A DNA stretch of 49,828 nt from Candidatus Geohabitans tengchongensis (GCA_031459625.1 JAVKIH010000001.1:58390-108217), one strand, 5' to 3'. Positions 24,252 to 43,674 are shown, counted from the stretch's first letter. Translations and numbers: made by a program. Notes: generated by a model not told the origin, from the letters alone.

Positions 24252-25070
24252 ATGCCGTCATTGCCGGGCTCAACCCGCCTCAAACCCGACCGCCCCGCTG
24301 TGGGCTGGACGCCCCGGCCCGTCTCCGCCCAGCCCCTCAGCCTCGTCCCCAAGTACCACCAGGTGCGCGCGGACATCGAGCGGCAGATCGCCGCGGGGAC
24401 CCTGGCCCCGGGGACGTTGCTGCCCCCCGAGCGGGACCTGATGCGGGCGTACGGGGTGAGCCGGATCACGTTGCGGGAGGCGCTGCGCCCGCTCCTGCTC
24501 CAGGGGACGCTCGTCTCGGTGCGGGGACGCGGCATCATGGTGGCCCAGCCCACCATCCGCCAGGCCGGGGACGTGCTGGTCTCCTTTACCGACGTGCTGC
24601 GCTCCCAGGGGCTGGAACCCGGCATCGGGCAGGTGGAGATCACGGTGGAGCCGGCGCCTCCCGAGGTGGCCGCCGGGCTGCGCCTGCCGCCGGCGACCCC
24701 CGTCGCCCGGGTGGCCAGGGTGCGCACCGCAGGGGGTCGGCCGGTCAACTACAGCGTCTCGCACCTACCGGCCTCGGCGGTCCCTGGGCTCGAGGTCGCC
24801 CGGCTGGCAGCGGTGGGATCGCTCTACCACCTCCTCCGCCAGGACTACGGCCTGGAGGTCGCCCGGGCCGAGGACGAGATGTGGGCCCGGGGGGCCACGC
24901 GGCGGGAGGCGGCCTTGCTGGGCATCCGCGCCCGCGCTCCCGTCCTCATCCTGCGGCGCCTGGCCCTGCTCAGGAACGGCGAGCCCATCGAGCACGGGAT
25001 CTCGGTGATCCGCTCCGACATCTACCGGTACGGGGTCCGGCTGGCGGCGCCGCCGGTCGGCGGAGGCTAG
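24252..25070 (+). CDS. GntR-family (HutC/UTRA) transcriptional regulator
   Basis: PKYHQV...LPPERDL...VSRITLREAL...GRG HTH plus UTRA-like C-terminus. Confidence 0.9.
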   Translation: MPSLPGSTRLKPDRPAVGWTPRPVSAQPLSLVPKYHQVRADIERQIAAGTLAPGTLLPPERDLMRAYGVSRITLREALRPLLLQGTLVSVRGRGIMVAQPTIRQAGDVLVSFTDVLRSQGLEPGIGQVEITVEPAPPEVAAGLRLPPATPVARVARVRTAGGRPVNYSVSHLPASAVPGLEVARLAAVGSLYHLLRQDYGLEVARAEDEMWARGATRREAALLGIRARAPVLILRRLALLRNGEPIEHGISVIRSDIYRYGVRLAAPPVGGG

Positions 25071-25073
25071 ACG

Positions 25074-26036
25074 GTGACGCGTGCGGAGGCGGGTGGCGGC
25101 GCCGAGCAGGGCGTAGGCGTAGCCCGCCGGGCCGCCGAGATCCTGGACGACCTGCGCCTGCTGCGGATCCGGGGCGGGAGCGCCATCGGCCGGGCGGCAT
25201 TCACCGCGCTGGCACTGGCGGCGGCGGAAGGGCCCGACGACCCCGCCGCGCTGGGTGCGCACGTGCTCGACGTGGGACGGGAGCTGCTGGCCCTGGCCCC
25301 CGTCATGGCCACCGTCGCCCGCGTCGTCCACGACGCCGAGGCCATCGTGGAGGAGGAGCTTGGCCGGGGCGCCCCCGCATCCCAGGTCCGGGCGCGCCTT
25401 CAGGCCTGGGCAGAGCGGAGCGTCCGGCGGTCTGAAGCCGACATGGCCCGCCTGGCCGAAGTGGGGGCGCGCCTCGTGGGGTCGGGACGAACGCTGGTGA
25501 CGCACAGCTTCAGCGACACCGTCCTGCGGGTCCTCACCCACGTCGCGCGCGCCGGGGCGACGGTGCGGGTGGTGGTAACCGAGTCCCGCCCCCTCTTCGA
25601 GGGCCGGCGCCTGGCCGAGGCGGTGGCGGCGCTCGGGCTGCCCTGCGAGCTGATCCCAGACGCCGCCATGGGCGTGCGGGTGCGGGGGGCGGACCTGGTC
25701 ATGGTCGGCGCGGACGCCGTCCTCCCCTCGGGGGCCTTCCTGAACAAGACCGGCACCTACCTGCTGGCGCTCGCCGCAGCGGCTGCCGGTGTCCCTGTCT
25801 ACGTGGCGGCAGAGACGACGAAGGTGGACCCGCGGGCCGCCCTGGGGTGGCCCGTGCCCGTGCCCGACCGCCCGGCGGCAGAGGTGTTGGGCGAGTGGAC
25901 GCCGCCGCCAGGGCTCATCGTCTGGAACCGCTTCTTCGAGACCACGCCGGCCAGGCTGGTGGAGGCCTTCGTCACGGAGCGCGGCGTGTTGAGCCCGGCG
26001 GCGATGGCGGCCTCGGCCCGGGCCGACGAGGCGTAA
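25074..26036 (+). CDS. eIF-2B alpha/beta/delta-like protein (ribose-1,5-bisphosphate/MTR-1-P isomerase superfamily)
   Basis: IRGG, THSFS, ESRP..EG, VGAD, NKTGT, FETTP, TERG motifs. Confidence 0.85.
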   Translation: MTRAEAGGGAEQGVGVARRAAEILDDLRLLRIRGGSAIGRAAFTALALAAAEGPDDPAALGAHVLDVGRELLALAPVMATVARVVHDAEAIVEEELGRGAPASQVRARLQAWAERSVRRSEADMARLAEVGARLVGSGRTLVTHSFSDTVLRVLTHVARAGATVRVVVTESRPLFEGRRLAEAVAALGLPCELIPDAAMGVRVRGADLVMVGADAVLPSGAFLNKTGTYLLALAAAAAGVPVYVAAETTKVDPRAALGWPVPVPDRPAAEVLGEWTPPPGLIVWNRFFETTPARLVEAFVTERGVLSPAAMAASARADEA

Positions 26037-26045
26037 CTGCGGGCG

Positions 26046-27101
26046 ATGCCGGGGGTGGACCTCTACGACCGCATCCTGGGCAGCCTGGCTGCCGGCGTGA
26101 TCGGCGACGCCATGGGCGCGGCCACGGAGCAGCGCAGCTTCGAAGAGATCGTGCGCCTCTTCGGGGGCCCGGTGCGCGAGTTCCACCGTCCGCCACCGGA
26201 CAGCCCCTTCGCGGGGGGGCGCGAGGCCGCCCAGATCACGGACGACGCGGGGCAGATGTTGGCCATGGCCCGGGCGCTGATCGAGACCGGAGGCGTCCTC
26301 AGCGTCGAGGCCGTGGCCCGTCACCTGCTGCGCTGGGCGGAGGATCCCGAGGTCTTCCGGCGGTTCGCCGGCCCCACCACGCGCGCGGCCATCGAGGCGA
26401 TGCGCGAGGGGGTCCCGCCGCTGGAAGCGGGACGGCGCGGGCGCCTCACCAGCGTGGGCACGAGCAACGGCGCGGCCATGCGGGTGGCCCCCGCCGGACT
26501 GGCGCACCCCGGTGACATCGACGGCGCGGTGCATGATGCGGTGGTGATGTGCCTGCCTACCCACGCCACCCAGCTGGCCATGGCGGGCGCGGCCGCTGTG
26601 GCCGCCGGCGTGGCCCAGGCGCTCACCCCGGACGCCGACGTCTACAGCGTGGTGCGCGCGGCCTTTGCCGGTGCGGAGCAGGGCGAGGCGTCGGGGCGGC
26701 GCGAGGGGCGGGTGGTGGCAGGGCCGTCGGTGCAGCGGCGCATGGAGCTGGCGGTGGCGCTGGCGTTGCGCCACTCCGACCTGCTGGAGGCGGTGCAGGC
26801 GATCCACGCCGTGGTGGGCAGCGGGCTGCACATTGCCGAGGCCGTCCCCGCCGCCGTGGGCGTCTTCGTGGCGGCGGGCGGGGACCCGCTGGAGGCGATC
26901 ATGGGGGCGGTGAACATCGGGGACGACACCGACACGGTGGCCATCATCGCCGGCAGCCTAGCCGGAGCGCTGCGGGGGGCCCGGGCCCTGCCGGCCGACC
27001 TCATCGAGCGCGTCGAGCGCGCCAACGCGCTCGACCTGCGCGCGGTGGCCCGCGAGCTGACGGCGCTGGCCGAGCGGGCCCGAGTCCCCAGCGCCCGCTA
27101 G
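26046..27101 (+). CDS. ADP-ribosylglycohydrolase family protein
   Basis: GDAMG, TDD, SNGAAMRVAP, THA and GDDTDT metal-binding motifs. Confidence 0.92.
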   Translation: MPGVDLYDRILGSLAAGVIGDAMGAATEQRSFEEIVRLFGGPVREFHRPPPDSPFAGGREAAQITDDAGQMLAMARALIETGGVLSVEAVARHLLRWAEDPEVFRRFAGPTTRAAIEAMREGVPPLEAGRRGRLTSVGTSNGAAMRVAPAGLAHPGDIDGAVHDAVVMCLPTHATQLAMAGAAAVAAGVAQALTPDADVYSVVRAAFAGAEQGEASGRREGRVVAGPSVQRRMELAVALALRHSDLLEAVQAIHAVVGSGLHIAEAVPAAVGVFVAAGGDPLEAIMGAVNIGDDTDTVAIIAGSLAGALRGARALPADLIERVERANALDLRAVARELTALAERARVPSAR

Positions 27102-27202
27102 GGCGCTGCGGGCCGTCCGTGACCGTACCGTGGCGGGCGGTTCGGGAGGGGAGGTGAGAGGGGTCTCGTCGTCTAGGCGGAGGAGGGAAGGAGGTCGAGA
27201 CG

Positions 27203-28591
27203 ATGTGGGTGCGAGTGTGGGGAGGCCTCACGGCCCTGCTCGTCGCCGTGGTCGCCGGTGCGCTGGTGGCGAGCACGGTGCTGCCGGTCCGGGCGTCCCC
27301 CCGACAGGCTGAGGAGGCGGCCGCGGCCGGCGGGGCGGTGGCGCAGGCGGCGCGGCCGCGCGTCGTGCTCAAGTTCCTGACCATCACCGACGACGCCCAG
27401 ATCAACGCCTGGAAGGAGATCCTCCAGGAGTTCCGCAAGATCGAGGGCGGGAAGTGGGCCCACGTGGACCTGGCCTTCGAGTCGGTGCCGTTCCAGGACC
27501 TCTTCCCCAAGATCGAGAGCGCTGTGGCCGCGGGCGCCCAGATGGACCTGGTGCAGTCCGATGGCCCCGACATGAAGCACTACGCCTTCTACCGCAGCCT
27601 GGTGCCGCTGGGCCGCTACTTCACCCCGGAGGAGCTCAAGCAGTGGCTGCCGCAGTCCGTCGAGGAAGGCAGCTTCCGCGGCGTGCTCTACGGCCCGCCG
27701 ATGATGCAGTCCTGCTCACTGATGATGTACAACCGACAGATGACCGACGCCGCCGGCATCAAGCCGCCCACGACGCTGGGGCGGAGCTGGACGATGCGCC
27801 AGGCGCTCACCGCGTGGCAGAAGACCACCCGCCGCCCCGCCGGCTCCAGCGTCCCCACGGTGTGGGGGCTGCGCTGGGGGCAGGGGACGTGGGTCGGCGA
27901 CTACGAGCACGGGATCTTCCGGCGGTCGAACGGGGCCAAGGGGTCCAAGACCTTCCAGGGCATGGGCCCGGACGGGGTTACCTTCGTCGGCTACTTCGAC
28001 ACGCCCGAGGCCGTCGAGGCGATGCAGTTCTACCAGGACCTGCACCGCCGCTACCGGGTGACGCCCATCGAGCCGATCCCGCAGATCTTCGAGACGCGCA
28101 AGGCCGCCTTCATGGTGACGCCCGACAACCGCATCGGGGAGCTCAACCGCCTCTACGGGGAAGGGAAGTTCCCCTGGGGCGTGACCGGCATCCCCTACTT
28201 TAAGACCCAGCTCTGCCACACCGGGAGCTGGCACTACGGGATCTCGCCGAACACGCGCCACCTGGAGGAGGCGGTGGCATTCGTGAAGTTCGCCAGCAGC
28301 GACGCGGGGGCGCGCATCTGGTACAAGCACGTGCGCCAGCTCCCCGCCAACGTCAACCTGCTCAACAGCCTGCCCGAATACCGGCCGGGCGGGCGGCAGC
28401 ACATGTGGTTCGAGGCGATGCAGCGGATCGGGGTGCCGCGCATCCAGACCCCCGGCTACACCGAGTACCAGCAGGTCTTCGCCGAAGTGACCCTCAACAT
28501 CATCGCCGGCGCCGACGTCGCCCAGCAGATGAAGGCCGGAGCCCAGCGCATCCAGGGCCTGCTGGCCAAGTACCGGGGCTGGAACCGCTAG
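27203..28591 (+). CDS. Carbohydrate (CUT1) ABC transporter substrate-binding protein
   Basis: Signal peptide, 462 aa, SBP-like YN motif; followed by two permeases. Confidence 0.85.
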   Translation: MWVRVWGGLTALLVAVVAGALVASTVLPVRASPRQAEEAAAAGGAVAQAARPRVVLKFLTITDDAQINAWKEILQEFRKIEGGKWAHVDLAFESVPFQDLFPKIESAVAAGAQMDLVQSDGPDMKHYAFYRSLVPLGRYFTPEELKQWLPQSVEEGSFRGVLYGPPMMQSCSLMMYNRQMTDAAGIKPPTTLGRSWTMRQALTAWQKTTRRPAGSSVPTVWGLRWGQGTWVGDYEHGIFRRSNGAKGSKTFQGMGPDGVTFVGYFDTPEAVEAMQFYQDLHRRYRVTPIEPIPQIFETRKAAFMVTPDNRIGELNRLYGEGKFPWGVTGIPYFKTQLCHTGSWHYGISPNTRHLEEAVAFVKFASSDAGARIWYKHVRQLPANVNLLNSLPEYRPGGRQHMWFEAMQRIGVPRIQTPGYTEYQQVFAEVTLNIIAGADVAQQMKAGAQRIQGLLAKYRGWNR

Positions 28592-28597
28592 CCCCAC

Positions 28598-28661: not shown

Positions 28662-29579
28662 GTGAGCGTCGCCACGCCCGCCCTCCCCGTCCCGCGCCGG
28701 TGGTGGACCGCCCGCCGCCGCGGCTACCTACTGGCCTTCCTGTTCATCGCCCCCGCCCTGGTGAACTTCCTCGTCTTCCGCTACCTGCCGATCCTGGCGG
28801 CGCTGCGGTCGAGCCTCTGGCAGTACAGCCTGCTGGGCGGGTACGGGACGTTCATCGGTCTGGGCGCTTACGGGCGCATGCTCGAGGACCCGATCTTCTG
28901 GACCTCGCTGCGGGTGACCGCGCTCTACGTCCTGCTCAAGGTGCCGGCGCAGGTGGCGCTCAGCCTGCTCTTCGCCGTCCTGCTCCAGCGGGAGACGCGC
29001 TTCGCCGCCCTGGTCCGCTCGGCCGTCTTCGCCCCCGTGGTGGCCTCCATCGTCGTCGTCTCGGTGATCTGGGCGCTGATGTACCACGTGCAGCTGGGGC
29101 TGCTGAACAGCATCCTCACCAGCCTGGGCCTGCCGCGGATCGCCTTCCTCTCCAACCCGCAGCTGGCGCTCGTGGCCATTGTCGTCATGATGGTCTGGAA
29201 GGAGCTCGGCTTCAGCATGATCATCCTCATGGCGGGGCTGAAGGGCATCCCCGACATGTTCTACGAGGCGGCACGCATCGACGGGGCCAGCCCCTGGCAG
29301 CAGTTCCGGGCCATCACCCTGCCCCTGCTGCGCCGGGTGCTGATGTTCGTCCTCGTCACCCAGACGATCTTCTCCTTCCAGGTCTTCGTCCCCGTCTACA
29401 CCATGACCCGCGGCGGGCCGCTGGACGCGACGAAGGTCATCGTCTACTACATCTACCAGAACGGCTTCCTCTTCCAGGACATGGGGTACGCCGCGGCCAT
29501 CTCCATGGTGACGCTGGCCATCCTGCTGGTGGTGAGCGGCGTGCAGATGCGGCTGCTGCGCAGCGAGGTGGAGTACTGA
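28662..29579 (+). CDS. Carbohydrate ABC permease (MalF/UgpA-like)
   Basis: EAA loop YEAARIDGA, ITLPLL, TRGGP, MGYAAA. Confidence 0.92.
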   Translation: MSVATPALPVPRRWWTARRRGYLLAFLFIAPALVNFLVFRYLPILAALRSSLWQYSLLGGYGTFIGLGAYGRMLEDPIFWTSLRVTALYVLLKVPAQVALSLLFAVLLQRETRFAALVRSAVFAPVVASIVVVSVIWALMYHVQLGLLNSILTSLGLPRIAFLSNPQLALVAIVVMMVWKELGFSMIILMAGLKGIPDMFYEAARIDGASPWQQFRAITLPLLRRVLMFVLVTQTIFSFQVFVPVYTMTRGGPLDATKVIVYYIYQNGFLFQDMGYAAAISMVTLAILLVVSGVQMRLLRSEVEY

Positions 29580-30523
29580 TGTCCTCCGGGCCTGTGGCCG
29601 AAGCCCGCGCGGTCCTGCCGGCCCGGCGAGGGGCGGGGACGGCGGCGTTCCTGGCCCGCTGGGCGCGCGCGGCCGGGCGGGACTGGTGGTGGTACCTCAC
29701 CGGGGTCGTCATCCTGGTCCTCTACGTCACGCCCTTCGCCTGGATGATCCTGGGGAGCCTGCGGCGGGAAGTGGAGATCTTCGAGTACACCTACCCGCTG
29801 ACCTGGCGCACCTTCGTCCCCGTGGAGTGGACGCTGAAGAACTTCCTCGACGTGCTCGGTCTCTCCCCGGAGGGGCGGGCCTTCGGGCTGAACTTCGGCC
29901 GGGCCCTGGCGGTGACGGCCTTCGTCTCGGCGGCCGTCGTACTCAGCTCGCTGGTGGTGAACACCATGGGCGCCTACTTCTTCGCCCGCCTGGACTTCCC
30001 GCGCAAGGAGGCGCTGCTGCTCGTCGTCATCGCCACCATGCTCATCCCCTTCGAGGCAGTGATGGTGCCGCTCTACATCGTCGTGCGGGCGCTGGGGGTG
30101 CAGGACACGGTGTGGGCCCTCGTCCTCCCCTGGTACGCCAGTCCCTTCGTCATCTTCGCCCTGGTTCAGTTCTTCAAGGAGATCCCGCGGGAGCTGGACG
30201 AGGCCGCCATCATCGACGGGGCCTCCTTCTTCGGGGTGCTGCGCCACGTCATCGTCCCCAACGCCGTCCCCGGGCTGGTGACCACGGCGCTGCTGGAGTT
30301 CCAGTTCATCTGGAACCTCTTCTACTGGCCGCTCATCGCCGTGGGGCGCAAGGAGCTGCAGACGATCCAGGTGGCCATCGCCCAGCAGACGACGCAGACG
30401 CAGATCTACTGGGGGCGCATCTTCGCCGGCTCGGTGCTGGCCTCGGTCCCCATCATCCTCCTCTTCCTCCTGATGCAGCGCTACTACGTCCGCGGCGTCG
30501 TCCTCTCCGGGGTCAAGGGGTAG
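29579..30523 (+). CDS. Carbohydrate ABC permease (MalG/UgpE-like)
   Basis: YFFARLDFP, IPRELDEAAIIDGA, WN..WPL, QRYYVRG...SGVKG. Confidence 0.92.
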   Translation: MSSGPVAEARAVLPARRGAGTAAFLARWARAAGRDWWWYLTGVVILVLYVTPFAWMILGSLRREVEIFEYTYPLTWRTFVPVEWTLKNFLDVLGLSPEGRAFGLNFGRALAVTAFVSAAVVLSSLVVNTMGAYFFARLDFPRKEALLLVVIATMLIPFEAVMVPLYIVVRALGVQDTVWALVLPWYASPFVIFALVQFFKEIPRELDEAAIIDGASFFGVLRHVIVPNAVPGLVTTALLEFQFIWNLFYWPLIAVGRKELQTIQVAIAQQTTQTQIYWGRIFAGSVLASVPIILLFLLMQRYYVRGVVLSGVKG

Positions 30524-30526: not shown

Positions 30527-31483
30527 ATGGCCCCCCGGCGGGTGCTCATCGACACCGACCCCGGCGTGGACGACACCATGGCCATCCTCCTGGCCCTGGC
30601 CTCGCCCGAGGTCGTGGTGGAGGGCCTCACGGTGGTCTACGGCAACACCGACGCGGAGCAGTGCGCCCGCAACGCCCTGGCCGTGCTGGAGGTGGCGGGC
30701 CGGCCCGACCTGCCGGTGGCGGTGGGCGCCCGGCGCCCCCTCCTGCGGCCCTACACCGGCCGCGGCCGGCAGGTGCACGGGGCGGACGGACTGGGGGAGA
30801 CCGGCCTCGGGGCCGGCCGGCCCGTCCCCGAGGGGAACGCCGTGGAGTTCCTCATCGCCCGCGCCCGGGAGGCCCCGGGCGAGCTGACGGTGCTGGCGCT
30901 GGGCCCGCTGACCACCCTGGCCCTGGCCGTGAGCGTGGAGCCGCGCCTGGCGCAGTGGGTGCGCGAGGTGGTCCTCATGGGCGGCGGGGTGCGCGAACGG
31001 GGGAACGCCACCCCCGTGGCCGAGGCGAACTTCCACAACGACGCCGAGAGCGCCCGCATCGTCCTCCACGCCGGCTGGCCGGTCACCATGGTGGGGCTGG
31101 ACGTTACCCACCGCGTGATCATGACGCCGGCGCACCTGGCGCGGCTGGCCGCCGCCCGCACGCCGGTGACCGAGCTGATCGGGGCGATCACCCCCTTCTA
31201 CCTGCGCGCCGCCCGCCAGTTCGCCGGCATCGACGGGTTCTTCGTGCACGACCCCACCGCCGTCACCTACCTGCTCCGCCCCGAGTGGTTCACCACGCAG
31301 GAGCTCTACGTCGACGTGGTCACCGACAGCGAGCGGGCGCGCGGCCAGACCATCGCGGACTTCCGCGGGCAGTGGGGACAGCCGCCCAACGTGCGTGTCT
31401 GCCTGGAGGTGGACGCGGAGCGCGAGCTGGCCCTCTACCTCGAGCGGGTGACCGCCTACCGCCCGGGTGCCGCCCCGTCATGA
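30527..31483 (+). CDS. Nucleoside hydrolase (IU-NH family) 1
   Basis: DTDPGVDD, VHGADGLG, GPLT, MGG, AEANF, HDP. Confidence 0.93.
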   Translation: MAPRRVLIDTDPGVDDTMAILLALASPEVVVEGLTVVYGNTDAEQCARNALAVLEVAGRPDLPVAVGARRPLLRPYTGRGRQVHGADGLGETGLGAGRPVPEGNAVEFLIARAREAPGELTVLALGPLTTLALAVSVEPRLAQWVREVVLMGGGVRERGNATPVAEANFHNDAESARIVLHAGWPVTMVGLDVTHRVIMTPAHLARLAAARTPVTELIGAITPFYLRAARQFAGIDGFFVHDPTAVTYLLRPEWFTTQELYVDVVTDSERARGQTIADFRGQWGQPPNVRVCLEVDAERELALYLERVTAYRPGAAPS

Positions 31484-31537: not shown

Positions 31538-32494
31538 ATGACCGGCGTCCCCGCCGTGGAGACCCGCGGCCTCACCCGGCGCTACGGCGACCTGGTGGCG
31601 GTGCGCGACCTGGACCTGCGCGTGGAGGTCGGGGAGATCTACGGCTTCCTCGGGCCCAACGGGGCCGGGAAGACGACGACGCTGCTCATGCTGCTCGGGG
31701 TGGTCGCCCCCTCGGCCGGGCGGGTCTTTCTGTGGGGGCGGCCGCTCGAGGCCGACCCGCTGGGCCTGCGCGCCCGCATCGGGGTCGTCGGGGAGCACGA
31801 CTACGTCCACGACCACCTGACCGGCGAGGAGTACCTGCGCTTCTTCGCCGCGCTCTACGGCGTGCCCGACCCCGCCGCCCGCGTTGGCGCCCTGCTGGAG
31901 CGCCTGGGGTTGTGGGAGTTCCGCCGCCTGTGCGCGCGTGACTACTCCCGCGGCATGGCGCAGAAGCTGGCGCTGGCGCGGGCCCTGCTGCACCGGCCGG
32001 CGCTGCTGATCCTGGACGAACCGGTCTCCGGCCTCGACCCGCAGGGGGTGGTGGAGGTGCGGCGGCTCCTCCTGGAGCTGAACGAGGCCGGGGTGACCAT
32101 CCTCATCTCCTCTCACCTCCTCTCCGAGGTCGAGCGCACCGCCCACCGGGTCGGGATCATGCACCGCGGCCGCCTGCTGCGGCAGGGGCCGCTGTCGGCC
32201 CTACGCCTGGAGGGCGGCCGGGCCGTGGAGATCGAGGTGGCCCACCCCGCGCCGCACCTGGGCACGGTACTGGCGGCGCTGCCCTACGTCGGGCGCGTGG
32301 AGAGCGAGGGTCGGCGGCTGCTCGTCACCACGCTGGACGGGGAGGACCGGCGGGCGGCGCTCTCCCGGGCCGTGGCTGACGCCGGCGGGGTGATCGTGGG
32401 GATGCGCGTGCGTGAGCGGACGCTAGAGGAGACCTTCTTGCAGGTGACGGAGGCCGACGTCGACCGATGGGCATCCTCGCCTCCCGGCGGGTGA
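31538..32494 (+). CDS. ABC-2-type (exporter-like) ATP-binding protein
   Basis: GPNGAGKTT, YSRGM signature, LDEP, SSHLL, TLEETFL. Confidence 0.9.
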   Translation: MTGVPAVETRGLTRRYGDLVAVRDLDLRVEVGEIYGFLGPNGAGKTTTLLMLLGVVAPSAGRVFLWGRPLEADPLGLRARIGVVGEHDYVHDHLTGEEYLRFFAALYGVPDPAARVGALLERLGLWEFRRLCARDYSRGMAQKLALARALLHRPALLILDEPVSGLDPQGVVEVRRLLLELNEAGVTILISSHLLSEVERTAHRVGIMHRGRLLRQGPLSALRLEGGRAVEIEVAHPAPHLGTVLAALPYVGRVESEGRRLLVTTLDGEDRRAALSRAVADAGGVIVGMRVRERTLEETFLQVTEADVDRWASSPPGG

Positions 32495-35722: not shown

Positions 35723-36660
35723 TCGTCGACTGCGACCCCGGGCACGACGACGCCCTGGCCATCCTCCTGGCGGGCCGGCGCCTCGAGGTGCTGGCCATCA
35801 CCACCGTGGCGGGCAACCAGACCGTCGAGAAGGTCACCACCAATGCGCTGAAGGTGGTGGAGGCGGCAGGGCTGACGGCCATTCCCGTGGCCCGCGGCGC
35901 CGCGACCCCCCTCGTGCGCCCGCCGCGCCACGCCCCGGAGGTGCACGGGGAGACCGGCCTCGACGGCCCCGAACTCCCGTCACCCCGGACTCCCCTCGTG
36001 GACCGGCACGCCGTCGACCTGATCGTGGAGACGGCGATGCGCGAGGACGACGTGACGCTGCTGGCGCTGGGCCCGCTGACCAACGTTGCCCTGGCGCTGC
36101 GCCGGGAGCCGCGCCTGAGGGGGCGGCTGCGGGAGATCTGCCTCATGGGCGGGTCCACCGCGCGCGGCAACGTCACCCCGGCCGCGGAGTTCAACATCTA
36201 CGTCGACCCCGAAGCCGCCCACGCCGTCTTCACGAGCGGCGTGCCGGTCAGGATGGTGGGGTTGAACGTCACCCAGCAAGTGGTGGCCACGCCGGAGCGC
36301 CGCCGCGCCATCCGGGCCGTGGGGACGCGCGTGGCGGCCCTCGCCGCCGACCTGCTGGAGTTCTACAGCGCGGCGATCCACCGCCTGTACGGGCTACCGG
36401 GCGGAGCGCTGCACGACCCGGTGGCCGCGGCGGCGCTCATCGACCCGTCGGTCGTCCGCTTCGCGCCGATGCACGTGGCGGTGGAGCTGCACGGCGAGCA
36501 CACCGCCGGCATGACGGTGTGCGACGACCGCTACACCCGCACCGCTCCCGACGTCCCCGCGGCCCGGCGCGGGGCGCCCCCCAACGCCGAGGTGGCCGTG
36601 GCCGTGGACGCGGACCGGTGCTTCGATCTCCTCCTCGACGTGCTACGCGAATACCCGTGA
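35707..36660 (+). CDS. Nucleoside hydrolase (RihA/RihC-like) 2
   Basis: DCDPGHDD, VHGETGLDG, AAEFNIYVDPEAA, LHDP. Confidence 0.93.
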   Translation: MARRVIVDCDPGHDDALAILLAGRRLEVLAITTVAGNQTVEKVTTNALKVVEAAGLTAIPVARGAATPLVRPPRHAPEVHGETGLDGPELPSPRTPLVDRHAVDLIVETAMREDDVTLLALGPLTNVALALRREPRLRGRLREICLMGGSTARGNVTPAAEFNIYVDPEAAHAVFTSGVPVRMVGLNVTQQVVATPERRRAIRAVGTRVAALAADLLEFYSAAIHRLYGLPGGALHDPVAAAALIDPSVVRFAPMHVAVELHGEHTAGMTVCDDRYTRTAPDVPAARRGAPPNAEVAVAVDADRCFDLLLDVLREYP

Positions 36661-36728: not shown

Positions 36729-37712
36729 TCAGGGCGGCGGGAGGTCTCCGATGCCGTGCGCGGCCAGGCAGGCCGCCGCCTGCGACTGGACGGCCGGAGT
36801 GATGCGCGGCACCCCCGGTGCGCCCAGCGTCACCGCCGCGGAGATGGCCCCGTGGAGCCCGGCGATGCGGGCCGCGTCGCTCCGGCCTCCCTCCCCCGCA
36901 CCGGGCGGCTTCGGCTGCGGCCTCGGACTCCGCTCCGGACCGGCCCGGATCGCCCTCGCCCACCCCACGAGCAGCCCGCCGCCGTAGGCGTTCCCCGCCC
37001 CCGTGACGTCGACCACCGGTCCCAGGGCGACGGCCGGCACGTGCACTGGGGCGGCGTCCCCCCGCGCCTGCACGAGCGACCCCGCGCGTCCCAGGCGGAC
37101 CGCCGCCAGGGCGGCGCCGGCCTCCAGGAAGGCGGTGAGCCACGCCTCGGGCGGCTGCGGGCCGAGCAGCGTGCGGCACTCCTCGCCGTTGGGGCAGACG
37201 ATGTCCACCCGGCGCAGGAGCGCCAGCACGGTGCGGCGGTGCTCCGGCACCATGTGCCAGGGTGCGGGCTCCCAGCAGACGGCGGCGCGGCGGGCCCGCA
37301 TGGCGGTGAGGAGCGCGTCCACGTGATCGAGCTGGGCGGTGTGCAGGTGGAAGCCGCGCGCGTCCACGAAGGGGGCGAGCTGGTCGGGGGTCGGCAGGAA
37401 GGCGGGGAACTCGTCCCGGGGCGAGCGGAAGATCTCCGTGCGGTGCTCGTCCGCGTCGTAGAGCTGCCAGGCTCTCGGCGTGGCGCGGTCGAGGCGGCGG
37501 ATGGCGTGCAGGTTCAGGCCCAGCGCCTCCAGCGCGGCCCAGTGCTCCGGGGGGAAGTCCCGGCCAATGCTGCCGACCAGCGCGACGTCGGGGCCCCACA
37601 GGCACATCCCGGCCGCGGCGTGCGTGGCGCCGCCGCCCAGCACGCCCTCGAAGAGCCGCCCGTCCGCCGCCCGGATGTCGTCCACGATGATCGAGCCGAC
37701 GGCGACGAACAC
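36729..37712 (-). CDS. PfkB-family kinase 2 (GAGN variant)
   Basis: IVDDI, LGGGATHAAAG, PN..E, DVTGAGNAY. Confidence 0.85.
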   Translation of the reverse strand: MFVAVGSIIVDDIRAADGRLFEGVLGGGATHAAAGMCLWGPDVALVGSIGRDFPPEHWAALEALGLNLHAIRRLDRATPRAWQLYDADEHRTEIFRSPRDEFPAFLPTPDQLAPFVDARGFHLHTAQLDHVDALLTAMRARRAAVCWEPAPWHMVPEHRRTVLALLRRVDIVCPNGEECRTLLGPQPPEAWLTAFLEAGAALAAVRLGRAGSLVQARGDAAPVHVPAVALGPVVDVTGAGNAYGGGLLVGWARAIRAGPERSPRPQPKPPGAGEGGRSDAARIAGLHGAISAAVTLGAPGVPRITPAVQSQAAACLAAHGIGDLPPP

Positions 37713-37713
37713 G

Positions 37714-38910
37714 CTACCCTCCCGGGGTGCCGTCTCCGGCGCGCAGCGTCCGCGATGCCCGGGCGGGCGACGAGGCGGCGCCGATCGGGCCCGCGCGGGG
37801 GAGCCGCAGGAAGATCAGGCAGCTCACCCCCGCGGCGAGCGCGCTGGCGGCGAAGACGGTTGACGCCCCTCCCCATCCGTACACCGCCCCGGCCAGTGCC
37901 GTGCCGATACCCGGCCCGAGGCCCATCAGCGCGGCGCCGTACAGCGCCTGTCCGGTCGTGGCCCAGCCCGGGGGCGTCAGGGTGCGCACCAGCACCACGC
38001 CGGCCACTTCCAGCCCCGCGATGGTCACGCTGTGGAGGAGTTGCAGCGGGAGGATGGGCCACGGGGACGCCAGGAGCGCGTAGAGCGTCCAGCGGATGGG
38101 CAGGGCCAGGAACCCGGTGCCCACCATGGCGGACAGCCCGAAGCGTTCGATGAGGCGGTGCATGCCGGCCATGAGCGGCACCTCGCCGAGGGCCGCGACG
38201 GCAAAGGCGGCCCCGACGGTCCAGGCCGGACTGCCCAGGTCGCGGAGGAAGACGGCGAGGAAGGTGTTGTTCACGCCCAGGCCGGCGCCGGCCAGCACGG
38301 CGGCGGCACAGAGTCGCCACAGGCGCGGGTCGGCGGCGCCGCGCAGGGCCAGGCGCGGCGCGGTGAGCCGGCCGGGGGGCGCAGGCAGGGCGAGGGAGAG
38401 CGCCGCGGCGGCGAGCATGACGACGGCATGGACCGGCAGCACGTGCTGGGGATGGCTGCGCACCACGGTCGCCCCCAGCGCGAAGACCGCCAGGGCGAAC
38501 CCCAGAGAGCCCCACAGGCGGATCCGTCCATACACGGCTTCCTGGGCCCTCAGGTGGGCGAGCGCCATGGCGACGGCGATCGGCAGCACGGCCGCCCGAC
38601 AGGCAGCGAACGCCACCGTGGCGGCGAGCAGCGTGGCGGAGGTCGAGGCGGTCCACAGGGCGAGGGAGGCCGCCGCGGTGCCCAGGCAGGCCGAGGTGAG
38701 GAGCGCCCGGGGCCGCTCGGTGAGGTCGGCGAGCAGGCCCCACAGCGGCTGGGCGACGACCTGGACCACCGGCAGCAGGCCGAGCAGCCAGCCGGTCGCA
38801 GCGGGGGTGAGGCCGCGGTCGAGGAGGGCCACGGCGATGAAGGTGATCGCGGCGATCCCCGTGTAGACGGTGGCGAAGAAGGCCCAGAAGGCGGCGGACG
38901 ACGCCCGCAT
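37714..38910 (-). CDS. MFS transporter (nucleoside:H+ symporter/HcaT-like)
   Basis: About 12 TM; PLWGLLAD, YGRIRLWGSLG, EVP, QLLHS, TGQALY. Confidence 0.87.
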   Translation of the reverse strand: MRASSAAFWAFFATVYTGIAAITFIAVALLDRGLTPAATGWLLGLLPVVQVVAQPLWGLLADLTERPRALLTSACLGTAAASLALWTASTSATLLAATVAFAACRAAVLPIAVAMALAHLRAQEAVYGRIRLWGSLGFALAVFALGATVVRSHPQHVLPVHAVVMLAAAALSLALPAPPGRLTAPRLALRGAADPRLWRLCAAAVLAGAGLGVNNTFLAVFLRDLGSPAWTVGAAFAVAALGEVPLMAGMHRLIERFGLSAMVGTGFLALPIRWTLYALLASPWPILPLQLLHSVTIAGLEVAGVVLVRTLTPPGWATTGQALYGAALMGLGPGIGTALAGAVYGWGGASTVFAASALAAGVSCLIFLRLPRAGPIGAASSPARASRTLRAGDGTPGG

Positions 38911-38970: not shown

Positions 38971-40062
38971 ATGAGGGCGACGCAGCGCTCCGGGTCGCGC
39001 CCGGTGGACGTGGTGGCGGTCGGCGCCGCCGCGGTGGACCTGGTGATCCGCACGCCCCGCCTGCCCCGGTTCGACGAGAAGGTGACCGGGGCGCTGGTGG
39101 GATGGTTGCCGGGCGGGACGATGGCCAACGTCGCCTGCGCCCTCAGCCGGCTGGGCGGACGGGCCGTCTGGGTCGGGACGGTGGGCGCGGACCGCGGCGG
39201 CCGGCTCCTCCTGGAGGACTTCCGCCGCCACCGGGTCGACGCGCGCCTGGCCGTCGTCGATCGGCGTCAAGCGACGAACATGACGGTGATCTTCCTCCCC
39301 TCCCCCCATGAGGGATCACCCGATGCAGGATCATCGCGCCCGTCCCGCGGCTCGGCGCCGGCACAGGCCCGGTCCGGCGCCGTGGCCCCCGTGTCCGGGG
39401 CCGAGCGGGCCATCGTGGTGCTCTCCACCGCCCGCGACCGCCTGCCGCCCCCGGATCGGTGGCGCCGTCTGCTGGCGCGCGCGCAGTTCGTATACCTCTC
39501 CCCGCACGACGCGGCACTCGCTCGGCGCGTGGTCGCCACGGCGCGGCAGCAGGGGTGCGCGGTGGCGCTGGAGGTGGAGCCCACTGCCGCCCGCGCCCTT
39601 CCGGCCATCGACCCGTTGCTGTCCCGCGCGGACCTCCTGGTGTGCAACCGCGGCGGTCTGGCCCTGCTCGTCGGGTGCCGCCTCCGCAGCCGGCGCGATG
39701 CGGCGGCGGAGGCGGCGCACCTGCGCGCGCGGGGCCCGGCCCTGGTGGCGGTGACCCTGGGGGCGGAGGGGGCGCTGCTGGCCACCGCGGAGGGTGTCCT
39801 CGTCCAGGCAGGCTTCGCCGTCCCGGCCGTGGACACCACCGGCGCAGGTGACTGCTTCGGTGCCGCCCTGCTGCTGGCGCTGGCGCGACGGTGGCCGCCC
39901 GCACGGGCCCTGACGTTCGCCACCGCCGCCGGCGCCCTGGCCACGACGGGCGTCGGCCCGCGCGGCCACCTGCCGACGCGCGGCGAGGTCCGCCGGCTGG
40001 CCGAACGCGGCGCCCCGCCGCGCCTGATCCCCGTGGGATTCGGGCCGCGGCGTCGACCATGA
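38971..40062 (+). CDS. PfkB/ribokinase-family carbohydrate kinase 3
   Basis: PGGTMANVA..LSRLG, VGAD, VTLGAEG, DTTGAGDCF. Confidence 0.9.
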   Translation: MRATQRSGSRPVDVVAVGAAAVDLVIRTPRLPRFDEKVTGALVGWLPGGTMANVACALSRLGGRAVWVGTVGADRGGRLLLEDFRRHRVDARLAVVDRRQATNMTVIFLPSPHEGSPDAGSSRPSRGSAPAQARSGAVAPVSGAERAIVVLSTARDRLPPPDRWRRLLARAQFVYLSPHDAALARRVVATARQQGCAVALEVEPTAARALPAIDPLLSRADLLVCNRGGLALLVGCRLRSRRDAAAEAAHLRARGPALVAVTLGAEGALLATAEGVLVQAGFAVPAVDTTGAGDCFGAALLLALARRWPPARALTFATAAGALATTGVGPRGHLPTRGEVRRLAERGAPPRLIPVGFGPRRRP

Positions 40063-41399
40063 CCCGCGATCCGGCCCGACCGTACCGCACCCACCCGCCC
40101 GCAGCGCCGGTGCCGCTGGCGGCGCGACCGGCCCGGCGGCTCGTCCTGCGCGGAGGGCGCGTCGTCGATCCGGCGACGGGCCGCGACGGCGTCGCCGACG
40201 TGGCCATGGTGGCGGGGCGCGTCGCGGCGGTGGCCTCCGACATCCCCCTGGAGCGCGACGACCGGGTCGTGGACGCCGAAGGCCTGCTCGTGCTCCCCGG
40301 GCTAGTGGACCTGCACTGCCACCTGCACGACCTCTTCGACGTCTCCACCCGGCCGATCGAGGAGGCCGTGGTCCACGGCACCGTGCTGGCCCTCTCTCCC
40401 GGGGCCGGCAACACTTTCATGGCGCCGGCGCTGCTCGGGGCGGAGGTGGACCGCGGCCTGCCGCTCCACGTGGGGTGCTACCTGGGCATACCCGCCGTGC
40501 TGGGGACGCGGGCGCGTGTCGGCGACCTGGTGGCCTACTTCCGCGGAGAGCTCCCGGCCGACGCGCAGAGCGCCCTCATCACCCGAAATCCCCTGACGAA
40601 TGCGCTGGGCCGCCTGGCCGTCGGGCTGAAAGACCACATGGGCCACGCCATCCTCACCGACGAGGCGCTGGAGGCGGCGTTCACCGTGGCTGCCGGCGCC
40701 GGGCTCGTCCTCATGTCCCACTGCCAGGATCCGGAGCACGCCGAGCGCGTGGTGGCCGTCGCCAGTGGCCGGCCCGTGCTCCTCACTCACGCCACTGCGG
40801 CCGGGGGAGGCACCCACGGCGAGGCCCGGGAGAGCCTGGCCCGCGTGCTGGCTCTGGCGGCTCGCCCCGGCGTGGCGCTGGACTTCACCACGGCCCACCT
40901 GCGGGCGGGCGGCGGCCTGCGCGACGGCCTCCTCATCGATGAAGGGGCGCGACGCGTGGCCCTGGAGGCGCTCGCCCGGGGCGAGGTGGCTATCCTGACC
41001 TCCGACGGCCCGTGCAATGCCACGATGAAAGGGTTCGGAGACAGCTCTGCCAACATTCCGTGCCTGCTCGATCTGGTCGCTGAGGGCGTCCTCTCCCTCC
41101 CGCAGGCGGTGGCGACCATGACCGCCAACCCGGCCGCGCTACTGGCGCGCCTGACGGGGCAGACGTGGTGGGTCGAGGAGCTGGGGCACCTGGGCGTGGG
41201 GGCGCGGGCCAACGCGGTCCTGGTCCACCCGCGCGAACGCCACGCGGTGATGACGGTCGTCGAGGGCACGGTGGCGGCCTTCGAGGGGCGGGTGGTGCGC
41301 AGCGCCGCCGGCGTGGGCGGGTGGGCCGCCCGCACCGGCCTCCTCCCGCGCCTGGGGGTGGGCGACCTGCCGATCTTTCGCCGGATGCCGGTCCAGTGA
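40059..41399 (+). CDS. Metal-dependent amidohydrolase (dihydroorotase-like scaffold)
   Basis: LRGGRVVDP, PGLVDLHCH, KDH, SHC, TSD, TANPA, GHLGVGARA; ATGA overlap. Confidence 0.85.
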   Translation: MTRDPARPYRTHPPAAPVPLAARPARRLVLRGGRVVDPATGRDGVADVAMVAGRVAAVASDIPLERDDRVVDAEGLLVLPGLVDLHCHLHDLFDVSTRPIEEAVVHGTVLALSPGAGNTFMAPALLGAEVDRGLPLHVGCYLGIPAVLGTRARVGDLVAYFRGELPADAQSALITRNPLTNALGRLAVGLKDHMGHAILTDEALEAAFTVAAGAGLVLMSHCQDPEHAERVVAVASGRPVLLTHATAAGGGTHGEARESLARVLALAARPGVALDFTTAHLRAGGGLRDGLLIDEGARRVALEALARGEVAILTSDGPCNATMKGFGDSSANIPCLLDLVAEGVLSLPQAVATMTANPAALLARLTGQTWWVEELGHLGVGARANAVLVHPRERHAVMTVVEGTVAAFEGRVVRSAAGVGGWAARTGLLPRLGVGDLPIFRRMPVQ

Positions 41400-41428
41400 G
41401 ATGCCTGCGGGCGCGATGAGGGACTTAC

Positions 41429-42688
41429 ATGCGTGAGGTCAACATCGCTGGTCTGCTGCGCGACGGGTGCGACCTGCTCATTCGCGACGTGACGGTCGTG
41501 GACCCGGGACCACCGGGCTCTGTCAGAGACGCGCTCCGCATCCTGCCCCGCCACGACGTGGCCGTGCGCGGCCGCCACATCGCGGCCGGTCTCCCGACCG
41601 GTGCGGTCCCCCCCTGCCGCGGCCCGGCAGGTCGTCGACCCGCCGGCTGGATCGGCGCTCCTGCCCGGGCTGGTGAACGCCCACGCCCACATGACCATGG
41701 TGCTCCTCAGGGGCGCCGCCGAGGACGTGCCCGTGGAGGCATGGTTCAACGAGCACATCTGGCCGATGGAGAGCGCGCTCACCCCGGACGACGTGGCCTG
41801 GGGTGCCCGTCTGGCCGCGATCGAGCTGCTGGAGGGCGGCGTCACCACCGTGGCCGACCACTATTTCGCCATGGACCGCATTGCCGAGGTGGTCGCCGAG
41901 AGCGGGCTGCGGGCGCACCTGGCCTGGACGATGTTCGGGCGGGACGTTCGGGCGGGACCCGGTGGGGGAGCTCCGGCAGAGCGAGGAGTTCGCACAGCGC
42001 TGGCAGGGCGGGGCCGCAGGGCGCATCGCCGTCTGGCTGGGACCGCACGCGCCCTACACCTGCCCGCCCCCGTTCCTGCGACAGGTGCCCAGTGCGGCAC
42101 GGCGGCTGGGGCTTGGCTGCCACATCCACGTGGCGGAGACGCCGGACCAGGTGGCGCGGAGCCTCCAGGAGCACGGCATGAGCCCGGTGCGCCTGCTCGA
42201 GGCGGTGGGCCTGATGGAGGGTCCCCTCCTCTGCGCCCACGCCGTCCACGTCACCGACGAGGAGATCGGGCTCCTGGCCCGCACGGAGAGCGGCTGTGGC
42301 CCACTGTCCCAAGACCTTCCTCAAGCTGGCCGCGGGGATCGCGCCGGTCGTCAGGATGCGCCGCGCCGGAGTGACGGTGGCGCTCGGCAGCGACGGTGCC
42401 GCCAGCAACAACACGCTCGACCTCCTGGAACAGATGCGCCTGGCCGTGCTCCTCCAGAAGCACCAAGGGGAGGACGCCACCGCACTGCCGGTGGCGGAGG
42501 CCCTGGCGCTGGTCTACGCCACCCGAGCCTCGGACGTCCACACGGTCGTCGTGGACGGGCGCGTCGTGGTGGAGGACGGACGCATCCGCACGCTGGACCG
42601 GGAGGACGTCCTGCGCCAGGTCGAGACCCGCGCGCAGCGGCTGGCCCGGCGGGAGGGGCGCCGCCCGCACCAGACCTACCAGGCCTGA
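41429..42688 (+). pseudogene. Frameshifted MtaD-like (MTA/SAH/nucleoside deaminase) amidohydrolase
   Basis: PGLVNAHAH, GPHAPY, HIHVAET, AHCP and ALGSDG..SNN motifs are split over four segments by three frameshifts. Confidence 0.88.
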
Positions 42689-42747
42689 ACGGCCGGAGCG
42701 GCGACCCACCGCACGAGCCGATGAGTCGGGAAGAGCGGGAGGGCATC

Positions 42748-43674
42748 ATGGAGCGATTGATCATCGACACGGACACCGCCTCGGACGACGCGGTGGCGCT
42801 GCTGATGGCCCTGCGCTGGCCGCAGGTCCACGTGGAGGCCATCACCGTGGTGGCCGGCAACGTGCCGCTGGAGATGGGCAGCCGCAACGCCCGGTACACC
42901 GTGGAGCTGTGCGACCGCGAGACGCCGGTCTACGAGGGCGCCGCCCGCCCCCTGCTGCGGGAGCCGTCGTGGGCCTTCTTCTTCCACGGCACCGACGGCC
43001 TGGGGGACGTGGGCTACCCGCCCCCGACGCGCCCTCCCGCGCCGGGGCACGCGGTCGACGCCCTCATCCGCCTGATCCGCGCCGCCCCCGGCGCCTACAC
43101 CCTGGTGACGCTGGGCCCGCTGACCAACATCGCTCTGGCGCTGCGCCAAGCTCCCGACCTGGCCGCTGCGGTCCGCCAGTGCGTCGTCATGGGCGGAGCG
43201 GCCTGCACCGTGGGGAACATCACGCCCGCCGCCGAGTACAATATCTGGGTCGACCCCGAGGCGGCCCGGATTGTCTTCCACTCGGGGATGCCCATCCTGA
43301 TGGTGGGATGGGAACACTGCCGGGGCGCCGCCGCCCTGGACGACGCGGACATGGCGCGCCTCCGCGCCATCGCCACCCCTTATGCCGCCTTCGCGCTCGA
43401 CTGCAACCGAACCGCCCTGCGGGCCAGTCGGGAGTGGCTGGGCGAGCCCGGGCTGACCCTGCCCGACCCGGTGACGATGGCCATCGTCCTCGACCCGGCC
43501 GTCTGCACGGCGCGCAGCCGTCACTACGTGGACGTGGAGACCCAGAGCGAGCTGACCCGGGGGATGACCGTCGTGGACCGCCTTGGAGTCACCCGTCGCC
43601 CGCCGAACGTGGAAGTCTGCTGGGCGATCGACCCCCAGCGCTGGAAGGCCGTGCTGGAGGCGGCGCTGCGCTGA
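42748..43674 (+). CDS. Nucleoside hydrolase 3 (His-to-Pro variant)
   Basis: [33 protein letters not shown]. Confidence 0.92.

Follow-up and report, generated by a model that had tools for sequence, protein, structure and literature searches.

What does Candidatus Geohabitans tengchongensis, an uncultured bacterium of hot springs, import and break down with the 18 genes that separate ychF from rpsF? The stretch of DNA analysed here, which we refer to as the window, comprises 49,828 nucleotides (GCA_031459625.1, JAVKIH010000001.1:58390-108217), and the block in question spans positions 24252-43674 (19.4 kb), flanked by ychF (23103-24191) and rpsF (43885-44322). A preliminary description of this DNA had proposed an island that scavenges ADP-ribose and nucleosides. 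Riboside scavenging is very probably the general function of the block. The model that we favour, and hold to be a somewhat better than even bet, has this scavenging proceed by two parallel routes, one opened by nucleoside hydrolases (NHs) and the other by a kinase acting ahead of an ARH-family glycohydrolase; the gene content, the residues and the co-conservation on which the model draws are observed.

Scanning 28 frames against Pfam and NCBIfam recovered, where the preliminary description had placed them, all of the families it had named: a GntR regulator with UTRA domain, an IF-2B protein, an ADP_ribosyl_GH protein, a CUT1 solute-binding protein (SBP) with two permeases, three IU_nuc_hydro and three PfkB proteins, and further an MFS transporter, two Amidohydro_1-type genes, and an ABC ATPase with an ABC-2 permease, next to an orphan without a Pfam match. 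A specific NCBIfam cut-off was reached by none of the 18 block genes. The tight coupling that had been claimed is likewise real, as none of the 17 internal gaps exceeds 101 bp and 10 are no longer than 9 bp, and the genes form three same-strand runs: GntR to NH2 (+), MFS-PfkB2 (-) and PfkB3 to NH3 (+). The features are as follows.

24209-24256, + strand: candidate promoter and CATG-repeat element (-35 at 24209-24214, -10 at 24232-24237, 17-bp spacer)
24252-25070, + strand: GntR/HutC-type regulator with UTRA domain (PF00392 and PF07702)
25074-26036, + strand: eIF2B-like (IF-2B) protein of the Ser145/Glu176 type (PF01008)
26046-27101, + strand: ARH-family glycohydrolase, YegU/STM4067-like catabolic clade (PF03747)
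27203-28591, + strand: CUT1 SBP (PF13416/PF01547) with an N-terminal hydrophobic segment
28662-29579, + strand: CUT1 permease 1 (PF00528)
29579-30523, + strand: CUT1 permease 2 (PF00528)
30527-31483, + strand: nucleoside hydrolase NH1 (PF01156; DxDxxxDD, His84, His241)
31538-32494, + strand: ABC-2 (DrrA-like) ATPase (PF00005; TIGR01188 215 bits against a cut-off of 312)
32467-33336, + strand: ABC-2 permease (PF12698) with about 6 transmembrane (TM) segments as judged by hydropathy
33333-34655, + strand: orphan extracytoplasmic protein, no Pfam or NCBIfam match, putative ABC-2 accessory
34652-35722, + strand: PfkB kinase 1 (PF00294), anion-hole Asp present
35707-36660, + strand: nucleoside hydrolase NH2 (PF01156; His80, His236), UriH/RihA-like, below cut-offs
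36729-37712, - strand: PfkB-fold protein 2 (PF00294), Asn at the anion-hole catalytic Asp
37714-38910, - strand: MFS transporter (MFS_1_like PF12832 199 bits; PF03825 42 bits)
38971-40062, + strand: PfkB kinase 3 (PF00294), likely partner of the ARH protein
40059-41399, + strand: amidohydrolase AH1, cyclic-amidohydrolase-like (binuclear ligands H86, H88, K191, H221, H244, D316)
41429-42688, + strand: AH2, pseudogene of an MtaD-like deaminase of the methylthioadenosine (MTA)/S-adenosylhomocysteine (SAH) type, with frameshifts and an internal deletion
42748-43674, + strand: nucleoside hydrolase NH3, Pro239 replacing the second His, predicted purine-preferring type

The riboside theme is carried above all by the hydrolases. 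NH1-3 score 319-341 bits on the IU family model against a cut-off of 34, and the DxDxxxDD motif is present in all three as well as in all aligned orthologues. The NH1 motifs are kept in 11/11 orthologues and Pro is found at the second His position of NH3 in 6/6; the best PDB match of NH3 is the Sulfolobus purine nucleosidase 3T8I (E 2.6e-56), with which it shares a Pro-Asp motif. We take the two His residues of NH1 and NH2 to be catalytic and the Pro of NH3 to stand in for the second of them. The genome encodes three nucleoside hydrolases and one ARH protein, all of them within the block. Related loci add further nucleoside enzymes: a uridine phosphorylase sits between the NH1 and NH2 orthologues in L231 and L232 (the L232 protein passes TIGR01718), an adenine deaminase is joined to the same SBP/permease/NH/ABC-2 core in L152, and an adenosine deaminase is joined to the MFS/PfkB2/ABC-2/PfkB1 part in L199 and L202. 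Even SBP homologues of just 25-34% identity are found near a nucleoside hydrolase (L015, L234, L237, L248). The importer has no ATPase gene of its own, and one OB_MalK match above cut-off is found elsewhere in the genome; no solved structure is close to the SBP, the best matches being maltose/trehalose-type binders (E 3.6e-10). The nucleoside:H+ symporter match (PF03825) of the MFS protein is weak. Overall, the earlier picture of a catabolic block for nucleoside-like compounds, with import, glycoside cleavage and phosphorylation, holds.

The second route centres on the ARH protein. Its di-metal site, for which the Glu, TDD, DxDT, Asn and His residues were aligned to ARH3, is complete (Glu28, Thr65-Asp66-Asp67, Asn141, His173 and Asp294-x-Asp296-Thr297), each residue being kept in 44-45 of 45 clade members. 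At the sequence level, the position of the adenine-stacking Tyr of ARH3 is occupied by a small residue in 42 of 43 clade members and by an aromatic one in 1/43, and the offset that we assigned as equivalent to the ARH3 Phe is aromatic in 0/43; we assume that this Phe/Tyr pair forms an aromatic clamp that stacks on adenine in ARH3. The scores fall below the DraG (52 vs 337 bits) and Tri1 (45 vs 490 bits) cut-offs, and the similarity to ARH3 is weak. Identity is 41% to the Salmonella ARH protein (218 bits) and 32% to YegU, and in a tree without a characterised outgroup these three group together with support, and four distant ARHs fall outside.

Close relatives of this protein keep company with a kinase. 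Among the 80 ARH loci kept of 127 found in the genome scan, 24 of the 26 close-clade loci have a PfkB gene (18 within 300 bp), the two exceptions being short contigs; none of the 54 distant loci has one. The Salmonella ARH protein belongs to an MFS-kinase-ARH-GntR block with a kinase annotated as aminoimidazole riboside kinase, and STM4066 is reported to phosphorylate aminoimidazole riboside (PMC3161100). A Bacillota locus, L028, has in one run GntR, ARH (60%), PfkB, a Bmp nucleoside ABC transporter, a Ser-type IF-2B protein and a PsuG-family protein. Of the block kinases, PfkB3 comes closest to the one linked to the ARH gene in L028 (34%, 147 bits), and it shares the GG-T-x-x-N motif with ARH-linked kinases, and PfkB1 directly precedes the ARH gene in L144, L150 and L227.

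None of the three block kinases is a canonical ribokinase. The ribose motifs of the ribokinase RbsK are NxD and GGKGxN. These motifs are absent from the block kinases, which score 105, 38 and 142 bits on RbsK TIGR02152 against a cut-off of 300, PfkB1 (105 bits) lacking both NxD and GGKG; a canonical-looking ribokinase is encoded outside the block on contig C44. PfkB2 carries Asn in place of the catalytic Asp, as do 12/12 homologues; an Atlas search returned just generic PfkB clusters for it, and a literature search on Mak32 yielded nothing relevant. PfkB3 has a low-complexity insert of about 30 residues that was not seen in the other aligned kinases.

Where a riboside kinase adjoins a hydrolase whose site suits a 5-phosphoribosyl group rather than the adenine end, phosphorylation would precede cleavage by the ARH protein. 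By analogy, this suggests a kinase-first, glycosidase-second order as in pseudouridine catabolism, in which the PfkB protein PsuK 5'-phosphorylates the substrate and the glycosidase PsuG releases base and ribose 5-phosphate (PMC9247573). The preliminary description had placed cleavage before phosphorylation throughout; this order probably applies to the NH route alone, the evidence for the ARH step favouring the reverse.

The same description had pointed to ADP-ribose as a substrate. In this alternative, ADP-ribose or ADP-ribosyl conjugates (protein remnants, O-acetyl-ADP-ribose, alpha-NAD) are imported, the ARH protein frees ADP-ribose, a housekeeping NUDIX enzyme splits it, and the resulting adenosine and ribose halves are processed by the NHs and kinases. 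It would be served by the complete metal site, by the 8 NUDIX genes located elsewhere in the genome and by the agmatinase-like neighbours of ARH relatives in L029 and L030, which would suit arginine-type aglycones; moreover, ADP-ribosylglycohydrolase genes occur in Bacteroidetes ribose-utilisation loci, and ADP-ribose use by Bacteroides thetaiotaomicron is reported to be rus-dependent (10.1101/574913). We nevertheless regard it as unlikely: no NUDIX or phosphodiesterase gene was found in the block, the aromatic adenine clamp is missing in 42/43 clade members, the DraG, Tri1 and ARH3 scores are low, and a kinase beside the ARH gene would be superfluous if the substrate already bears a pyrophosphate. 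ADP-ribose as the main substrate is therefore not supported, but ADP-ribosyl remnants may still be used.

In the two-route model, a GntR/UTRA-repressed unit would scavenge ribonucleosides and riboside-like compounds, imported via the CUT1 SBP and permeases with a shared MalK-type ATPase and perhaps also by the MFS transporter. In route A, the three Ca-type NHs, judging by their family, would split ordinary beta-ribonucleosides into base and ribose, and the ribose would pass to the genome's canonical ribokinase or to a block PfkB. In route B, NH-resistant ribosides would first be 5'-phosphorylated by PfkB3 and/or PfkB1, and the ARH protein would then hydrolyse the riboside 5'-phosphate to aglycone and pentose 5-phosphate, following the PsuK/PsuG logic. 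The Ser/Glu eIF2B-like protein would bind the released pentose monophosphate and most likely isomerise it, which is the weakest step of the scheme. AH1 may open the ring of the released base to provide nitrogen, a deaminase would be an optional add-on that was lost in the window genome, and the ABC-2 unit with its Ig-domain accessory might, at a guess, export an unusable product.

Several observations speak against the two-route model. In the full block, a distance of 7.5-12 kb separates the ARH gene from PfkB3 and PfkB1, which belong to partly separate transcription units, and the block kinases are just 27-28% identical to the Salmonella riboside kinase, so riboside-kinase activity is not transferable by orthology. 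The PfkB counts (24/26 versus 0/54) compare the close clade with a distant set that comes mostly from one phylum (Actinomycetota), kin are not independent, and 5 of the 10 PfkB queries were taken from the close ARH loci themselves. The SBP lacks a close ligand-bound relative; one homologue (31%) is located among phosphoesterases and another (33%) with a penicillin-amidase gene. The ABC-2/orphan unit has unrelated genes as neighbours, too (ThiC-like radical SAM, inositol-phosphate). RusNH of B. thetaiotaomicron is reported to be weak and dispensable (10.1101/574913), and the NH genes are therefore no proof that ordinary nucleosides are the target. YegW (GgaR), to which the block's GntR is related, is reported to sense ADP-glucose (PMC10819704). 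Finally, ARH relatives in L029 and L030 are paired with an agmatinase-like gene, and therefore the aglycones may not be nucleobases.

This actinobacterial operon (L029:9122-16143 and L030) consists of GntR, ARH (52-54%), CUT1, agmatinase-like and PfkB genes, and its GntR-ARH intergenic region contains two 12-bp palindromes in L029; it hints at a guanidino aglycone.

Is the block one system at all? We tallied its spread over 94 Sysuimicrobiota genomes, with the unpublished G008 and G018 counted among the non-matches. Two markers separated by 14 kb, the eIF2B-like gene and AH1, are both present in the same 6/94 genomes and in no others at the thresholds used (G000, G031, G037, G050, G065 and G066). 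SBP orthologues of at least 79% identity are found in these six genomes and G085 (79-82% in the 6 genomes other than the window's own), and orthologues of 62-63% in G009 and G010. The entire gene order is visible in G031 (Ca. Calidihabitans tengchongensis, labelled Ca. Sysuimicrobiota and of the same order as the window genome) and in G050, and overlapping parts agree in the other marker genomes; genomes from hot springs and from soil share this order unchanged, with identities of 44-84%. Since the same order recurs in other genomes, this is more than chance, and the co-conservation proposed at the outset stands. Both markers are absent from 33/33 other genomes of the window's family and present in 5/22 of another family, a patchy distribution that reflects transfer or repeated loss.

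This pattern bears on a second alternative, that the block consists of accreted modules acting on different compounds, some of them non-nucleoside (N-glycosides of amino acids or amines), and held together by joint transfer. The modules would be GntR-IF2B-ARH, SBP-NH1-ABC2-NH2, MFS-PfkB2 and PfkB3-AH1-NH3. Sub-modules indeed recur apart or recombined (L148, L151, L155, L199, L227, L231), there are three transcription directions, AH2 is freely lost, and an operator-like element was found before GntR alone. Set against this are the same gene order in hot-spring and soil genomes, the perfect match in occurrence between the two markers that lie farthest apart (6/94) and the nucleoside enzymes that most recombined versions again contain, and we consider the accretion of unrelated modules to be rather improbable.

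The eIF2B-like protein raises a question of its own. Its best PDB match is the C135S mutant of ribose-1,5-bisphosphate isomerase (R15Pi), and the catalytic Cys (Cys135 in PH0208) is replaced by Ser145, Ser being present in 19 of the 20 closest homologues. In PH0208, the C135S substitution is reported to abolish catalysis while keeping micromolar substrate binding, and eIF2B-alpha to keep the 5-phosphate site without the Cys and the 1-phosphate site (PMC5789824). Of the 1-phosphate ligands (Arg22, Arg65, Gln166, Lys215), R33 and K225 are kept, while Arg65 has become Ala75 and Gln166 has become Glu176; the catalytic Asp and the sugar and 5-phosphate ligands are retained (D214, N224, K225, S147, K250). 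When the 120 best of 158 homologues were aligned, Glu stood at position 176 in every one of the 102 Ser-type proteins and Gln in every one of the 12 Cys-type proteins. The loss of Arg65 is particular to the window clade, since 65/102 Ser-type homologues keep Arg there. All 7 NUDIX-fused homologues are of the Ser/Glu type, and Ser-type IF-2B proteins stand alongside ARH genes in three separate contexts (the window block, L028 and L148). The genome encodes RpiB, RpiA was not found in it, and contig C9 carries a Cys-bearing MtnA-like paralogue. With RpiB present, the IF-2B protein is not required as a housekeeping ribose 5-phosphate isomerase, and for the same reason its substrate would probably be a modified pentose.

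Two assignments were rejected: R15Pi (catalytic Cys gone, 2/4 C1-phosphate ligands lost, TIGR00511 152 bits against a cut-off of 314) and MtnA (Ser at the catalytic Cys, TIGR00512 121 bits against 279). As judged by its residues, the protein is a probable binder and likely isomerase of a pentose 5-phosphate that is reducing and may be modified. Contig C11 of G000 carries another Ser-type eIF2B-like gene (1328-2338), adjoining BtpA-like, peptide-type ABC, luciferase-like and DeoR-type genes that were named by eye.

The two-route model could hold with the eIF2B-like protein being a non-enzymatic sugar-phosphate sensor or scaffold that tunes a kinase, the ARH protein or the regulator. Binding without catalysis by PH0208 C135S and the site lost from eIF2B-alpha would fit, as would the presence of RpiB; the Ser-Glu covariation (102/102), together with the Asp, Asn and Lys still in place, suggests instead that the active site was remodelled, the NUDIX fusions suggest substrate hand-over, and the chances of a purely regulatory role appear small. 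That the block is a bacterial pentose-bisphosphate route, in which a PfkB protein acts as ribose-1-phosphate (R1P) kinase and the eIF2B-like protein turns ribose 1,5-bisphosphate into ribulose 1,5-bisphosphate, is the least credible of all and we give it hardly any weight: R15Pi is the closest solved family and PfkB1 and PfkB3 reach 92-95 bits on a haloarchaeal R1P-kinase model, but the catalytic Cys (the Ser replacement inactivates the Pyrococcus enzyme, PMC5789824) and 2/4 C1-phosphate ligands are lost, the scores are far under the cut-offs (152/314 and 95/330), no R1P would be made in the block because it encodes hydrolases and not phosphorylases, no aldolase lies in the block, and Rubisco was not found (0 PF00016 matches in this 1 genome, 94% complete; matches in 5/14 control rings). 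On these grounds, the analogy drawn in the preliminary description is not supported.

Within the two-route model a bolder joint reading is possible, though tentative. YegU/STM4067-like ARHs would be riboside-5'-phosphate glycohydrolases that act after a partner PfkB kinase and not erasers of ADP-ribose. Characterised ARHs generally act on alpha-linkages. The substrates might be alpha-linked or otherwise hydrolase-resistant ribosides, such as anomerised or modified nucleosides, alpha-ribazole-like compounds or ribosyl-amino-acid remnants, and the Ser/Glu eIF2B-like proteins might form a third catalytic class of their fold, in which Glu takes over from Cys in isomerising a reducing pentose 5-phosphate.

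How the unit may be controlled is suggested by a 23-bp CATG-repeat element (24234-24256) that overlaps the GntR start and is kept in 6 aligned upstream regions. The pattern derived from it occurs once in the 2.76-Mb genome and at 9/267 loci, solely upstream of GntR orthologues, having been built from these same loci, of which L023 was not in the alignment; its half-site has 5 matches elsewhere in the window against 13 expected. The element is likely an autoregulatory operator. A strict sigma-70 promoter scan returned 0 sites, and a terminator scan of the window predicted 6 terminators against 2.0 expected. Run X2, although labelled RNA, tells nothing about transcription, because its depth is flat and its contigs of 5-13 kb span genes of both strands.

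The amidohydrolases differ in their fate. The binuclear ligand set of AH1 is invariant in 40/40 aligned sequences, and its fold is closest to dihydropyrimidinase and dihydroorotase (16-20% identity). Its homologues adjoin PucR, an M20 hydrolase and cyanase (L264), amidases (L257, L258) or a PfkB gene and an ECF transporter (L256); they are found in 4/401 and 2/401 in samples of two other phyla, with no match in the plasmids searched and none in 4 named-locus genomes. AH1 likely opens the ring of a released base. A protein of 400-415 amino acids without Pfam or NCBIfam match lies beside or near AH1 homologues at four loci in other phyla (L257:12432-13643; L258:2444-3667; L264:10740-11984; L267:1170-2372).

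AH2, the amidohydrolase that had been called decayed, is indeed so: measured against the intact G031 copy, its reading frame shifts at three points, close to 41.55, 41.95 and 42.29 kb, and some 47 codons are missing in frame around 42.5 kb. Contigs from three of four sequencing runs, all of one study, are identical to the window over the block, with 0 differences and 0 gaps, and the lesions are thus unlikely to be a one-off assembly error, two of the three matching runs possibly being the source DNA of the window; contigs of a relative from another study (X5, the sole run taken into account among those with small word shares) differ from the window by indels. The intact copy has 4F0R as its nearest PDB match (E 1.7e-69) and scores 208 bits on the MtaD model against a cut-off of 779. 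Of the six block genomes, one has an intact AH2, one a broken copy and 4 none at all; the gene is also absent from L137 and L138 and deleted almost wholly in L147. Deamination is thus optional, not the core step it had been taken for. Upstream of ychF, a gene on the + strand (21383-22882) encodes a fused MFS/spermidine-synthase protein that passes NF037959; a homologue of its synthase part immediately precedes the block in G031 and follows it at a distance of 1.6 kb in G050 (L013:3846-4673; L230:3494-4327). Spermidine-synthase-type enzymes yield MTA and AH2 is MtaD-like, an association that may be chance.

The ABC-2 unit comes with an orphan protein that carries a signal peptide and is modelled (AF2, pLDDT 90) as two Ig-like beta-sandwiches with a long helical insert and a C-terminal TM anchor. 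Structure searches (Foldseek, VIA-align) matched generic Ig-like proteins alone (best Z 8.2), and no known enzyme fold; Atlas returned no feature match, and structural TM scores for the query were <0.3, which need not make the fold a new one. A protein search gave 34 homologues. Among 80 loci kept of 122, the ABC-2 permease is directly upstream of the orphan in 74, and the remaining 6 start within 715 bp of a contig end. The unit accompanies nucleoside genes in some lineages and unrelated genes in others; our guess is that it exports a by-product. With an extra carboxypeptidase-regulatory-like gene, it is convergent with or near a ThiC-family radical-SAM gene at five loci (L156, L168, L183, L186, L193), and it follows NTP-transferase and CDP-alcohol transferase genes in L186, L191 and L192.

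Does the genomic site matter? In the best 29 of 40 relative loci (G008 and G018 included), ychF adjoins rpsF in 13/29 and lies within 1.5 kb of it in 18/29, among them G031, whose block sits away from its ychF-rpsF site. Elsewhere, the block occupies this site solely in L147, a metagenome relative of 92-96% identity, and unrelated cargo of 4-5.5 kb fills the same spacer in three genomes: CO-dehydrogenase/prismane, Fe-S and flavoprotein genes in G001 (L238:14811-18513), methyltransferase and amidohydrolase genes in G012 (L239:838-6150), and peptide ABC and epimerase genes in G017 (L240:883-5221). The ychF-rpsF interval is a variable spacer, and the location, named in the preliminary description, is no property of the system. 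Its term 'island' survives solely in the sense of an ameliorated cargo block, not of a mobile genomic island: the composition equals that of the genome (GC 0.743 vs 0.732; GC at third codon positions 0.93 vs 0.92), no Rfam match was found in the window and no integrase among the scanned genes, and the repeats listed include no boundary repeats, only similarity between NH paralogues and GC-rich chance matches. Beyond the block, a LonC-type protease gene (46788-48683, + strand; TIGR02903 sporulation Lon model 870 vs 679 bits) comes after rpsF-ssb-rpsR-DUF2232-rplI.

GntR-ARH-PfkB-transporter modules span several phyla, and this block adds context that the small modules lack, turning the substrate question into single-enzyme assays on hot-spring proteins. 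Should the two-route model be true, a widespread uncharacterised hydrolase-kinase pair would gain a function; should the joint reading of ARH and eIF2B-like proteins be true as well, this would be the first locus with the whole route beside an ordinary beta-nucleoside route. A large Ser/Glu eIF2B-like subfamily (102 of the best 120 of 158 homologues) is labelled R15Pi, MtnA or translation factor in databases, without having the catalytic Cys. The block also brings to light an Asn-type PfkB and a cyclic-amidohydrolase family yet to be characterised. For the Sysuimicrobiota, mainly described as facultative autotrophs, nucleoside scavenging would be a patchy niche trait; the word 'nucleoside' is absent from the main text of the phylum papers PMC11604079 and PMC11962464.

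How does the block compare with known systems? The closest is Salmonella STM4065-4066-4067 with its GntR gene, which has an ARH protein (41%), a GntR-UTRA regulator (31%), a transporter and a PfkB kinase that acts on a riboside. It has four genes versus 18 here, the CUT1 importer, three NHs, three PfkBs, the Ser/Glu IF-2B protein, AH1 and the ABC-2 unit being found in the window block alone. E. coli yegTUV/YegW (GgaR) is similar in its ARH (32%), GntR (28%) and PfkB (26%) proteins, unlike the block in lacking NH, IF-2B and an ABC importer, and its function is described as still unsettled (PMC10819704). The kinship with yegTUV/yegW that had been proposed therefore holds for the ARH and GntR proteins and not for the MFS transporter, as neither STM4065 nor YegT gives a BLAST match to the block MFS at E 1e-3. 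Our searches of open-access PMC and bioRxiv texts turned up neither an account of this block nor an activity reported for this ARH clade.

The Bacteroidetes ribose-utilisation system (RUS) likewise consists of variable loci with PfkB, permease, NHs and some ADP-ribosylglycohydrolases, freeing ribose from varied sources (10.1101/574913). RUS has SusC/SusD and RusR/LacI, whereas the window block has GntR and no SusC/SusD family among its 18 genes; its kinases are not canonical ribokinases, and its IF-2B, AH1 and ABC-2 unit are not described for RUS in the available text. PsuK/PsuG shares the proposed kinase-then-glycosidase logic, and a PsuG-family gene is part of the L028 operon; the window block, in contrast, has no PF04227 (Indigoidine_A) match, the putative glycosidase role falling to an ARH fold. 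The archaeal R15Pi pathway shares the fold, the catalytic Asp and the sugar and 5-phosphate ligands (PMC5789824), and differs by the Cys-to-Ser and Gln-to-Glu changes and the lost Arg65 seen here and by the absence of a phosphorylase from the block. By these tests, the block is not a RUS, not a pentose-bisphosphate pathway and not a DraG/ARH3 system. Most of its parts belong to familiar families, similar riboside loci have already been published, and the block includes an ARH module of the yegTUV/STM4067 type.

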